Origin: Escherichia coli
GTDB taxonomy: Bacteria; Pseudomonadota; Gammaproteobacteria; Enterobacterales; Enterobacteriaceae
Assembly: GCF_003334785.1 (NCBI RefSeq)
Contig: NZ_QOWV01000003.1
Length of the DNA stretch: 64,000 bases
Strand: one strand, 5' to 3'
In this document: one piece after another, positions 1,217 to 25,735 of the stretch
Layout of the letters: each line of letters begins with the position of its first letter
Numbering within the stretch: the stretch's first letter is position 1
Translations under genes and position numbers: made by a program
Notes under the pieces: generated by a model
Database searches by the model: none
What the model was told of the DNA's origin: nothing
Seen by the model: the letters and a program-made list of their open reading frames with translations, nothing else

Positions 1217-2245
1217 TTACTGCTGGCGTAGCTGGAGATCCAGCGGCGTTTTGCTGGGTTCGCCGCCAATTTCTCGCGCCAGTTTCGGCACCAGATATCC
1301 CGACACCAGTGTCAGCAACTCACGCATAATCTGCCGTGCTTCGTCATCACTCACCATAAAATGCGCCGCGCCCTGTACTTTATCGAGCACATGCAGGTAA
1401 TACGGCATTACGCCGGCATCGAACAACGCATTACTCAGGTTTGCCAGCGTTTGTGCGTTATCGTTCACATCACGTAACAGAACGCTCTGGTTCAGCAAAG
1501 TAACGCCTACCCGGCGCAACTTAGCCATCGCCTGACGGAATGTTTCATCTACCTCATTGGCATGGTTGATGTGATTCACCAGCAAGATTTGCAGCGTAGA
1601 ACGGGCAAAGCATTCAACCAGCGCCTCGGTGATACGTGCCGGGATCACAATCGGCAGACGGCTGTGAATCCGCAGACGTTTTATATGCGGGATGGCTTCC
1701 AGTTGTGTGAGCAACCAGTCCAGCTCGTGATCTTTCGCCATCAGCGGATCGCCGCCGGAGAAAATCATCTCGTCCAGTTCCGGATGCGCAGCAACATACT
1801 CAAGTGCAGTTTGCCAGTTACGCTTGTTGCCCTGATTTTCGGCATAGGGGAAGTGACGACGGAAGCAATAGCGGCAATTTACCGCGCAGCCGCCTTTGAC
1901 CAGCAAAAGCGCCCGGTTGTGGTATTTATGCAACAAACCAGGCACTACGCTGTGCTGTTCTTCCAGTGGGTCGGTGGAGAATCCGGGCGCGATGACAAAC
2001 TCATCTTGCGAGGTAAGTACCTGACGCAAAAGAGGATCGTCCGGATTGCCTTTCTCCATGCGATCGATAAATGAGCGGGGCACACGCAGGGCAAAAAGCT
2101 TTTTGGCGCTGCGTCCGGCTAACAGTTTTTCCTCCGCGTCTATATTCAAAAGACGCAGAAGTTCATCAGGATCGGTCACAACATCGGCAAGTTGCGTTAA
2201 CCAATCTTCTCTGGATGGGGTATTTAGGGTTACAATATGCGCCAT
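1217..2245 (-). CDS. epmB: EF-P beta-lysylation enzyme EpmB (lysine 2,3-aminomutase family, radical SAM)
   Basis: Track ORF of 342 aa with the CxxxCxxC radical-SAM motif (CAVNCRYCFRR); adjacent and divergent to efp. Confidence 0.95.
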   Translation of the reverse strand: MAHIVTLNTPSREDWLTQLADVVTDPDELLRLLNIDAEEKLLAGRSAKKLFALRVPRSFIDRMEKGNPDDPLLRQVLTSQDEFVIAPGFSTDPLEEQHSVVPGLLHKYHNRALLLVKGGCAVNCRYCFRRHFPYAENQGNKRNWQTALEYVAAHPELDEMIFSGGDPLMAKDHELDWLLTQLEAIPHIKRLRIHSRLPIVIPARITEALVECFARSTLQILLVNHINHANEVDETFRQAMAKLRRVGVTLLNQSVLLRDVNDNAQTLANLSNALFDAGVMPYYLHVLDKVQGAAHFMVSDDEARQIMRELLTLVSGYLVPKLAREIGGEPSKTPLDLQLRQQ

Positions 2246-2286: not shown

Positions 2287-2853
2287 ATGGCAACGTACTA
2301 TAGCAACGATTTTCGTGCTGGTCTTAAAATCATGTTAGACGGCGAACCTTACGCGGTTGAAGCGAGTGAATTCGTAAAACCGGGTAAAGGCCAGGCATTT
2401 GCTCGCGTTAAACTGCGTCGTCTGCTGACCGGTACTCGCGTAGAAAAAACCTTCAAATCTACTGATTCCGCTGAAGGCGCTGATGTTGTCGATATGAACC
2501 TGACTTACCTGTACAACGACGGTGAGTTCTGGCACTTCATGAACAACGAAACTTTCGAGCAGCTGTCTGCTGATGCAAAAGCAATTGGTGACAACGCTAA
2601 ATGGCTGCTGGATCAGGCAGAGTGTATCGTAACTCTGTGGAATGGTCAGCCGATCTCCGTTACTCCGCCGAACTTCGTTGAACTGGAAATCGTTGATACC
2701 GATCCGGGCCTGAAAGGTGATACCGCAGGTACTGGTGGCAAACCGGCTACCCTGTCTACTGGCGCTGTGGTTAAAGTTCCGCTGTTTGTACAAATCGGCG
2801 AAGTCATCAAAGTGGATACCCGCTCTGGTGAATACGTCTCTCGCGTGAAGTAA
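2287..2853 (+). CDS. efp: Translation elongation factor P
   Basis: Track ORF of 188 aa, [24 protein letters not shown]..., with the KPGKGQAF loop that contains the modified lysine. Confidence 0.97.
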
Positions 2854-9230: not shown

Positions 9231-10208
9231 ATGAGCGAAACGGCATCCTGGCAGCCGAGCGCATCCATTCCTAACTTATTAAAACGCGCGGCGATTATGG
9301 CGGAGATCCGTCGTTTCTTTGCCGATCGTGGAGTGCTGGAGGTGGAGACGCCTTGTATGAGCCAGGCGACGGTAACCGATATTCATTTGGTCCCGTTTGA
9401 GACACGTTTCGTTGGCCCCGGGCATTCGCAGGGGATGAATCTCTGGTTAATGACCAGCCCGGAATACCATATGAAACGCCTGCTGGTTGCCGGTTGTGGG
9501 CCGGTATTCCAGCTGTGCCGCAGCTTCCGTAATGAAGAGATGGGGCGTTATCACAACCCTGAGTTCACTATGCTGGAGTGGTATCGACCGCACTATGATA
9601 TGTACCGGTTGATGAACGAGGTAGACGATCTCTTACAACAGGTGCTGGACTGCCCGGCAGCAGAAAGCCTTTCTTATCAACAAGCTTTCTTGCGTTATCT
9701 GGAAATTGACCCGCTCTCTGCCGACAAAACGCAACTGCGGGAAGTCGCAGCGAAACTGGATTTGAGCAATGTTGCTGATACCGAAGAAGACCGCGACACG
9801 CTGCTACAATTGCTGTTTACCTTTGGCGTAGAGCCAAATATTGGCAAAGAAAAACCGACCTTTGTGTACCACTTTCCAGCCAGCCAGGCATCACTGGCGC
9901 AAATCAGTACCGAAGATCATCGGGTCGCTGAACGCTTTGAGGTTTATTATAAAGGTATTGAGCTGGCGAATGGTTTCCATGAATTGACGGATGCCCGTGA
10001 GCAGCAACAACGCTTTGAACAAGATAACCGTAAGCGCGCGGCGCGCGGTTTGCCGCAGCACCCCATTGACCAGAATCTGATTGAAGCCTTGAAAGTCGGT
10101 ATGCCTGACTGTTCCGGCGTGGCATTAGGTGTTGATCGTCTGGTGATGTTGGCGCTGGGCGCGGAGACACTGGCTGAAGTCATCGCCTTTAGCGTTGACC
10201 GGGCATAA
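9231..10208 (+). CDS. epmA: EF-P--(R)-beta-lysine ligase EpmA (class II Lys-tRNA synthetase paralogue, 325 aa)
   Basis: Track ORF trimmed to the ATG at 9231 ([30 protein letters not shown]...). Confidence 0.95.
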
Positions 10209-18947: not shown

Positions 18948-19023
<76 letters not shown>

Positions 19024-19058
19024 AAATTTGAAAGTGCTGTAAGGCACAGACCACCCAA

Positions 19059-19134
<76 letters not shown>

Positions 19135-20543: not shown

Positions 20544-22522
<1,979 letters not shown>

Positions 22523-22540
22523 CCTTTGAAAGGTGGCGGG

Positions 22541-23878
22541 ATGATGTATCGCATCAGAAATTGGTTGGTAGCGACGCTGCTGCTGCTGTGCACGCCGGTG
22601 GGTGCCGCGACGCTCTCTGATATTCAGGTTTCTAACGGTAATCAACAGGCGCGGATAACGTTGAGTTTTATTGGCGATCCTGATTATGCGTTTAGCCATC
22701 AAAGCAAACGCACCGTGGCGCTCGATATCAAACAAACGGGCGTGATTCAGGGACTGCCGTTGTTGTTCAGCGGCAATAATCTGGTGAAGGCGATTCGCTC
22801 TGGAACGCCTAAAGATGCACAAACGCTACGGCTGGTGGTCGATCTTACCGAAAACGGTAAAACCGAAGCGGTGAAGCGGCAGAATGGCAGCAATTACACT
22901 GTCGTCTTTACGATTAACGCCGATGTGCCGCCACCGCCTCCTCCGCCGCCCGTGGTTGCGAAACGCGTTGAAACGCCTGCGGTTGTCGCACCGCGCGTCA
23001 GCGAACCGGCGCGCAATCCGTTTAAAACGGAAAGTAACCGCACTACGGGTGTTATCAGCAGTAATACGGTAACGCGTCCGGCAGCGCGCGCGACGGCTAA
23101 CACTGGCGATAAAATTATCATCGCTATTGATGCCGGACACGGCGGTCAGGACCCTGGCGCTATCGGCCCCGGTGGTACGCGGGAGAAAAATGTCACCATC
23201 GCCATCGCGCGTAAATTGCGTACTTTGCTCAATGACGATCCGATGTTTAAAGGCGTTTTAACCCGTGACGGGGATTACTTTATCTCGGTGATGGGGCGCA
23301 GTGATGTGGCACGTAAGCAAAACGCCAATTTCCTCGTGTCGATTCACGCTGATGCCGCACCGAACCGCAGTGCGACTGGCGCTTCCGTATGGGTGCTCTC
23401 TAACCGTCGCGCCAACAGTGAAATGGCCAGCTGGCTGGAGCAGCACGAGAAACAGTCGGAGCTGCTGGGTGGGGCGGGTGATGTGCTGGCGAACAGTCAG
23501 TCTGACCCCTATTTAAGCCAGGCGGTGCTGGATTTACAGTTCGGTCATTCCCAGCGGGTAGGGTATGATGTAGCGACCAGTATGATCAGTCAGTTGCAAC
23601 GCATTGGCGAAATACATAAACGTCGACCAGAACACGCCAGCCTTGGCGTTCTGCGCTCGCCGGATATCCCATCAGTACTGGTCGAAACCGGTTTTATCAG
23701 CAACAACAGCGAAGAACGTTTGCTGGCGAGCGACGATTACCAACAACAGCTGGCAGAAGCCATTTACAAAGGCCTGCGCAATTACTTCCTTGCGCATCCG
23801 ATGCAATCTGCGCCGCAGGGTGCAACGGCACAAACTGCCAGTACGGTGACGACGCCAGATCGCACGCTGCCAAACTAA
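22541..23878 (+). CDS. amiB: N-acetylmuramoyl-L-alanine amidase AmiB (445 aa)
   Basis: Track ORF trimmed to [17 protein letters not shown]...; Amidase_3 domain; contains an eight-proline run. Confidence 0.93.
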
Positions 23879-23887
23879 GGACGATTG

Positions 23888-25735
23888 ATGCCAATTCAGG
23901 TCTTACCGCCACAACTGGCGAACCAGATTGCCGCAGGTGAGGTGGTCGAGCGACCTGCGTCGGTAGTCAAAGAACTAGTGGAAAACAGCCTCGATGCAGG
24001 TGCGACGCGTATCGATATTGATATCGAACGCGGTGGGGCGAAACTTATCCGCATTCGTGATAACGGCTGCGGTATCAAAAAAGATGAGCTGGCGCTGGCG
24101 CTGGCTCGTCATGCCACCAGTAAAATCGCCTCTCTGGACGATCTCGAAGCCATTATCAGCCTGGGCTTTCGCGGTGAGGCGCTGGCGAGTATCAGTTCGG
24201 TTTCCCGCCTGACGCTCACTTCACGCACCGCAGAACAGCAGGAAGCCTGGCAGGCCTATGCCGAAGGGCGCGATATGAACGTGACGGTAAAACCGGCGGC
24301 GCATCCTGTGGGGACGACGCTGGAGGTGCTGGATCTGTTCTACAACACCCCGGCGCGGCGCAAATTCCTGCGCACCGAGAAAACCGAATTTAACCACATT
24401 GATGAGATCATCCGCCGCATTGCGCTGGCGCGTTTCGACGTCACGATCAACCTGTCGCATAACGGTAAAATTGTGCGTCAGTACCGCGCAGTGCCGGAAG
24501 GCGGGCAAAAAGAACGGCGCTTAGGCGCGATTTGCGGCACCGCTTTTCTTGAACAAGCGCTGGCGATTGAATGGCAACACGGCGATCTCACGCTACGCGG
24601 CTGGGTGGCCGATCCAAATCACACCACGCCCGCACTGGCAGAAATTCAGTATTGCTACGTGAACGGTCGCATGATGCGCGATCGCCTGATCAATCACGCG
24701 ATCCGCCAGGCCTGCGAAGACAAACTGGGGGCCGATCAGCAACCGGCATTTGTGTTGTATCTGGAGATCGACCCACATCAGGTGGACGTCAACGTGCACC
24801 CCGCCAAACACGAAGTGCGTTTCCATCAGTCGCGTCTGGTGCATGATTTTATCTATCAGGGCGTGCTGAGCGTGCTACAACAGCAACTGGAAACGCCGCT
24901 ACCGCTGGACGATGAACCCCAACCTGCACCGCGTTCCATTCCGGAAAACCGCGTGGCGGCGGGGCGCAATCACTTTGCAGAACCGGCAGCTCGTGAGCCG
25001 GTAGCTCCGCGCTACACTCCTGCGCCAGCATCAGGCAGTCGTCCGGCTGCCCCCTGGCCGAATGCGCAGCCAGGCTACCAGAAACAGCAAGGTGAAGTGT
25101 ATCGCCAGCTTTTGCAAACGCCCGCGCCGATGCAAAAATTAAAAGCGCCGGAACCGCAGGAACCTGCACTTGCGGCGAACAGTCAGAGTTTTGGTCGGGT
25201 ACTGACTATCGTCCATTCCGACTGTGCGTTGCTGGAGCGCGACGGCAACATTTCACTTTTATCCTTGCCAGTGGCAGAACGTTGGCTGCGTCAGGCACAA
25301 TTGACGCCGGGTGAAGCGCCCGTTTGCGCCCAGCCGCTGCTGATTCCGTTGCGGCTAAAAGTTTCTGCCGAAGAAAAATCGGCATTAGAAAAAGCGCAGT
25401 CTGCCCTAGCGGAATTGGGTATTGATTTCCAGTCAGATGCACAGCATGTGACCATCAGGGCAGTGCCTTTACCCTTACGCCAACAAAATTTACAAATCTT
25501 GATTCCTGAACTGATAGGCTACCTGGCGAAGCAGTCCGTATTCGAACCTGGCAATATTGCGCAGTGGATTGCACGAAATCTGATGAGCGAACATGCGCAG
25601 TGGTCAATGGCACAGGCCATAACCCTGCTGGCGGACGTGGAACGGTTATGTCCGCAACTTGTGAAAACGCCGCCGGGTGGTCTGTTACAATCTGTTGATT
25701 TACATCCGGCGATAAAAGCCCTGAAAGATGAGTGA
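23888..25735 (+). CDS. mutL: DNA mismatch repair protein MutL (615 aa)
   Basis: Track ORF trimmed to [39 protein letters not shown]... (GHKL ATPase motifs). Confidence 0.97.

Follow-up and report, generated by a model that had tools for sequence, protein, structure and literature searches.

The eight-proline run of Escherichia coli AmiB lies at the predicted start of an interdomain hinge and has a narrow phylogenetic range

What do eight consecutive proline codons in amiB mean, in a 64,000-nucleotide stretch of Escherichia coli DNA (the window) that also carries genes for elongation factor P (EF-P) and for its modification? A sequence-only reading of the window had expected the run to stall ribosomes, had predicted that AmiB output, and through it the separation of daughter cells, responds with particular sensitivity to EF-P status, and had taken the linkage of the genes to be probably coincidental. 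In the explanation that we consider highly probable, the run is a lineage-specific stretch at the start of an interdomain hinge, it causes a ribosome pause that EF-P relieves, and its proximity to the EF-P genes is meaningless.

The run reads CCG CCA CCG CCT CCT CCG CCG CCC on the plus strand, an imperfect repeat of four CCG, two CCT, one CCA and one CCC in proportions that look ordinary for E. coli. An open reading frame of 22526–23878 holds it in frame, and numbering from the annotated start at 22541 places it at AmiB residues 130–137, so that both the sequence and the reading frame confirm the eight proline codons that had been noticed in amiB. The product matched the NF007751 equivalog with 977.4 bits (cut-off 532), residues 1–445 aligning with profile positions 1–445, and the amiB DNA is 100% identical to that of E. 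coli K-12 BW25113. An artefactual or non-coding run was rejected, as the run is in frame in full-length AmiB and the gene was found in 5426 of the 5426 complete E. coli genomes searched. With a proline frequency of 0.046 over 43 genes of the region (12,821 residues), 2.6e-7 runs of at least eight prolines are expected in these genes and 2.7e-5 in a proteome of 1.35 million residues; the amiB run is far beyond chance. A six-frame scan of the window returned 36 other PPP or PPPP matches, all in stop-to-stop frames of 7–212 codons, and in the other genes of the 43 checked PPP was absent and only scattered single PP dipeptides occurred. A clustering of EF-P clients in the window was rejected, amiB being the sole PPP-bearing gene among those 43.

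Table 1 Coordinates of amiB, of the parts of AmiB and of the EF-P genes in the window
Feature	Position	Strand	Description	Basis
amiB CDS	22541–23878	+	N-acetylmuramoyl-L-alanine amidase AmiB, 445 aa + stop	NCBIfam NF007751; RefSeq annotation
AMIN domain	22607–22921	+	beta-sandwich, ~residues 23–127	Pfam PF11741, residues 27–112; AlphaFold2
Eight-proline run	22928–22951	+	residues 130–137, first linker residues	sequence; published footprint peak
Interdomain linker	22928–23107	+	~residues 130–189	predicted disordered, poorly conserved
Amidase_3 catalytic domain	23108–23806	+	~residues 190–422	PF01520, residues 194–413, E = 4e-48; 8c0j; AlphaFold2
epmB	1217–2245	-	lysine 2,3-aminomutase-like EF-P beta-lysylation protein	TIGR03821, 534 against a cut-off of 369
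efp	2287–2853	+	elongation factor P, Lys34 in KPGKGQ loop	TIGR00038, 254 against a cut-off of 186
epmA	9231–10208	+	EF-P (R)-beta-lysine ligase	NF006828, 604 against a cut-off of 264

The three EF-P genes named by the sequence-only reading were all recovered, each above its NCBIfam equivalog cut-off (Table 1). EpmB and EpmA beta-lysylate EF-P on Lys34, and this modifiable residue is present in the encoded EF-P, residues 31–35 of which read KPGKG. The description of these genes as a complete EF-P system held for efp, epmA and epmB, but it was overstated with respect to EpmC (YfcM), a hydroxylase and the third EF-P modification enzyme, which is dispensable. No EpmC was found by matching the RefSeq annotation of window positions 1–50,900 and of the rpsF-rplI segment, and none was found among ten large open reading frames at 53,145–63,586; we take epmC (yfcM) to map elsewhere in K-12. 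The stretch from 1217 to 36500 holds many genes of translation and RNA metabolism, namely epmB, efp, epmA, rsgA, orn, tRNA-Gly, queG, tsaE, miaA, hfq, hflX, rnr and rlmB, and rpsF-priB-rpsR-rplI lies farther on.

Work by Ude, by Doerfel and by Peil in 2013 reportedly established that prolines in succession react poorly, both as peptidyl donor and as acceptor, so that ribosomes stall at them, and that EF-P relieves the stall. In the study of Doerfel et al. of 2013, AmiB was reportedly one of the proteins that needed EF-P to be made in vitro. The amiB run has the at least three in-frame proline codons of a stall motif, and it was described by Martens et al. in 2015 as the longest proline run in E. 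coli, in a gene that is weakly expressed (PMC4402525). E. coli ribosome-footprint data show a sharp peak, ‘a dramatic ribosome pause’, at the eight codons (PMC4402525), which bears out the expected pause. A full-text literature search for efp-mutant data on AmiB returned none, with PMC4402525 as the sole relevant paper, and amiB is unlisted in those supplements of Elgamal 2014 that were examined. In our explanation, the successive Pro-Pro bonds, seven or more, would form slowly, so that ribosomes would queue at the run even in the wild type; beta-lysylated EF-P would then bind to such a stalled ribosome, between its P and E sites, and speed the formation of these bonds, as it would do in trans at proline motifs chromosome-wide. 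Since the general mechanism of EF-P is established, we infer that the amiB run, too, depends on EF-P and on its modification.

The position of the run within the protein was read from an AlphaFold2 model of AmiB built on 27 homologues. In this model, the AMIN strands span residues 24–127 with a block-mean pLDDT of 78–90, the last strand being 118–127, whereas pLDDT falls below 50 for residues 131–188 and the catalytic domain at residues 190–422 is again confident. The sole solved E. coli AmiB structure, PDB 8c0j, covers residues 190–422, and in a cryo-EM study of FtsEX-EnvC-AmiB the linker that joins the AMIN and catalytic domains is described as flexible and was left unmodelled (PMC10214136). 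Pfam, AlphaFold2 and 8c0j agree on an architecture of AMIN domain, linker and Amidase_3 domain. Because of the AlphaFold2 and Pfam domain limits, the coverage of 8c0j and the described flexible linker, we place the run as the first eight residues of the predicted interdomain hinge, three residues past the last modelled AMIN strand. The eight codons would thus encode the start of a hinge leading from the AMIN domain, as the septal peptidoglycan-binding part, to the zinc-amidase domain, and the run may serve as a stiff polyproline-II spacer of roughly 25 angstroms. Polyproline motifs of E. coli are over-represented near domain ends, from -2 to +9 residues, and interdomain linkers show no depletion of them (PMC5811046). 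Several AmiB variants of E. coli and Shigella (414–420 aa) carry in-frame deletions of ~25–31 residues in the distal linker and keep all eight prolines; because such deletions occur in natural variants, the distal linker appears to be dispensable in nature. A 36-nt length difference in the amiB of strain M15 (NZ_CP185789.1) was considered as a change inside the proline run and rejected: it is a tandem duplication of 36 nt in codons 11–22, located in the signal peptide, and gives a precursor of 457 residues.

The run has a narrow phylogenetic range. Among the best 120 protein clusters, eight prolines are found in E. coli and in 86 of the 120, nearly all from Citrobacter; E. coli, Shigella and most Citrobacter proteins in this set have eight, and variants with 3, 4, 6, 7 and 9 occur. 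AmiB proteins of other Enterobacteriaceae have 4–6 prolines. In a wider survey of 45 two-domain AmiB representatives at 50% clustering, a run of at least three prolines at this site was confined to four representatives whose AMIN identity to E. coli is at least 72%, one of them being an E. coli fragment that reads PPSPPP. Two distant representatives have an unrelated PPP deep within long linkers, and the other representatives of the 45, Yersiniaceae included, have at most two consecutive prolines. The Yersiniaceae AmiB, at 68% overall identity to that of E. coli, is without the run, and the linkers of the orthologues are unalignable and range from 15 to 171 aa, mostly about 20–65. This distribution fits a low-complexity stretch, seen only in Enterobacteriaceae, that is tolerated or mildly favoured. 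The run probably arose within Enterobacteriaceae, and its whole-codon length changes are probably due to replication slippage in the C-rich tract.

Length also varies within E. coli. K-12 has eight prolines, GmF067 has PPPPPP followed by V, and AVS0578 has PPSPPP followed by M. When a 90-nt probe spanning the run was compared with 5409 E. coli genomes, 4506 (~84%) matched over the full length at 95% identity or more and 903 matched at 80–95%, the sampled cases of the latter being 84 nt, that is, 6 nt shorter. The PPSPPP allele was exact in 695 genomes, and 156 more were within four mismatches of it. Going by these matches, a six-codon allele, in most cases the interrupted PPSPPP, is present in about 16% of the complete E. 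coli genomes; AmiB function therefore does not require a long run. The natural alleles are a ready comparison for the physiological effect of the pause.

A reading that goes further is that the run is a selected, programmed pause after AMIN synthesis, which would serve Sec targeting and export, AMIN folding or an AmiB output set by EF-P. It is compatible with the hinge explanation, to which it adds an adaptive function for the pause. The distance of three residues from the last AMIN strand lies inside the enriched zone of -2 to +9 (PMC5811046), for which motifs Qi et al. proposed a role in co-translational folding (PMC5811046), and the pause is strong enough to appear in wild-type footprints (PMC4402525). 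On the other hand, two-domain orthologues in Yersiniaceae and beyond do without the run, and because they share the architecture, AMIN folding and export would seem to need no run; the six-codon allele of about one E. coli genome in six, with its 695 interrupted copies, and the lengths of 3–9 among close relatives also argue against a tuned signal. Between E. coli and Citrobacter, all eight prolines are kept, although five of the eight codons differ synonymously and the remaining linker is 71% identical. At 71% per site, the chance that 8/8 sites are conserved is about 0.07, which makes this conservation only marginally unexpected and a weak hint of selection on the run; it follows that ‘tolerated low-complexity expansion’ may undersell the run. 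Stiffness as a spacer could equally have retained it. Taken together, we regard a programmed pause as unlikely, at roughly one chance in five.

The prediction for daughter-cell separation fared less well than that of the pause. Single amiB mutants were reportedly near normal in the work of Heidrich et al. of 2001. Strong chaining has been reported for strains without several amidases, such as the amiABC triple mutant (PMC12505981). We consider a special EF-P sensitivity of AmiB output and cell separation to be weakly founded and the predicted phenotype doubtful, because other amidases overlap AmiB, because the strength of a stall is an unreliable predictor of protein loss and amiB expression is weak, and because six-codon alleles occur naturally.

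The stall could instead matter mainly downstream of amiB: when EF-P is limiting, ribosomes caught at the run would uncouple translation from transcription and so reduce read-through into mutL-miaA-hfq-hflXKC. The arrangement of the genes would allow it, as mutL and miaA follow amiB on the same strand with junctions of at most 9 nt or overlapping, with hfq, hflX, hflK and hflC beyond them, and a scan of 21900–24100 gave no intrinsic terminator-like site from the run to mutL, its one weak terminator-like site being inside tsaE. An EF-P-dependent upkeep of transcription-translation coupling, reportedly described by Elgamal, Artsimovitch and Ibba in 2016, also counts for this reading. Against it, work of Tsui and Winkler in the 1990s reportedly described internal promoters for mutL, miaA and hfq within the genes upstream of them, and these would buffer polarity. 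No sigma-70-like promoters were detected in 21900–24100 by a simple, insensitive scan, and the literature searched contained no report linking efp to mutL or hfq expression. We judge such polarity to be very improbable; if it were true, EF-P status would be linked to mismatch repair, tRNA modification and Hfq levels. There is a similarly slim chance that the run alleles set lineage differences in the EF-P dependence of AmiB and, by polarity, of mutL-miaA-hfq-hflXKC, in which case EF-P status would influence Hfq levels and mismatch repair in certain lineages only.

As to the proximity of the genes, between efp and amiB lie about 25 unrelated genes, which belong to several operons and occupy both strands. 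The interval contains ecnA, ecnB, sugE, blc, ampC, frdDCBA, epmA, yjeM, yjeN, yjeO, mscM, psd, rsgA, orn, the tRNA-Gly genes, queG, nnr and tsaE. amiB itself occupies its conserved position in the cluster tsaE-amiB-mutL-miaA-hfq. When the flanks of amiB were compared across species out to 10 kb, the order mscM-psd-rsgA-orn-queG-nnr-tsaE-amiB-mutL-miaA-hfq-hflXKC-purA-nsrR-rnr proved identical between Citrobacter, whose AmiB has the run, and a Yersiniaceae genome whose AmiB lacks it. The intervening genes and this shared neighbourhood uphold the earlier view that the linkage is probably coincidental, and since EF-P acts in trans, the 20-kb distance between efp, epmB and epmA on the one side and amiB on the other is mechanistically meaningless. 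That co-regulation or gene dosage has placed the strongest EF-P client close to the EF-P genes is barely credible: the gene with the longest run in E. coli does lie 20 kb from efp, in a region rich in translation and RNA genes (those from rsgA to rlmB listed above), and +/-20 kb is ~0.9% of the 4.6-Mb chromosome, but this figure is post hoc, one among many possible coincidences, EF-P is diffusible and its motifs are genome-wide, no other gene of the 43 checked in the window has PPP, and both the unrelated genes in between and the identical neighbourhood of the run-less Yersiniaceae amiB speak against it.

Compared with known EF-P stall motifs such as that of CadC, the amiB run likewise has at least three in-frame prolines, a density peak (PMC4402525) and a host with EF-P Lys34, EpmA and EpmB. 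The usual motifs have three prolines, and the eight of amiB are the extreme in E. coli. To our knowledge, no regulatory role like the copy-number control of CadC has been described for the amiB run. With the domain-boundary motifs of Qi et al. 2018 (PMC5811046), it shares the enriched position class, here in a disordered linker; theirs is a statistical study whose main text does not name amiB (PMC5811046), and a folding benefit for AmiB would be hypothetical. E. coli AmiC (PDB 4BIN) and the AmiB proteins of P. aeruginosa and E. coli have the same two-domain plan, with a flexible linker that lets the AMIN domain relocate. In AmiB proteins of Yersiniaceae and of more distant groups, the linker is similar in length but has at most 1–2 consecutive prolines at the site, and the eight-proline run is a peculiarity of Escherichia and Citrobacter. 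The run and its pause are thus already published, the mechanism would be a textbook case of EF-P action and the proximity looks coincidental; what is added here is the exact placement at the domain boundary, the restricted phylogenetic spread and the alleles within the species. The amiB run is a handy natural extreme for studies of EF-P stalling, for which it has already been used.

Despite its identical amiB, the window is not from K-12, because the number of tRNA-Gly copies differs and an island is present at 53–62 kb. Two tandem tRNA-Gly(GCC) genes lie at 18948–19134, where collinear K-12 BW25113 has three, a difference of one 112-nt unit. Between rplI and ytfB, at about 53145–62928, ~9 kb are absent from the K-12 record; this island encodes the DctP and DctM subunits of a TRAP transporter, a flavoprotein of the fumarate-reductase/aspartate-oxidase type, a CoA-transferase, an enoyl-CoA hydratase, an SDR reductase and a TetR-like regulator. 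At the same site, the K-12 record shows yjfZ together with a truncated TetR pseudogene, and this comparison suggests a deletion or replacement in K-12. On the minus strand opposite the proline run (22928–22951), the reverse complement contains AGGAGG, a perfect Shine-Dalgarno-like hexamer, which sits in a 104-codon antisense open reading frame (22826–23140) that looks non-genic and encodes an arginine-rich low-complexity stretch.
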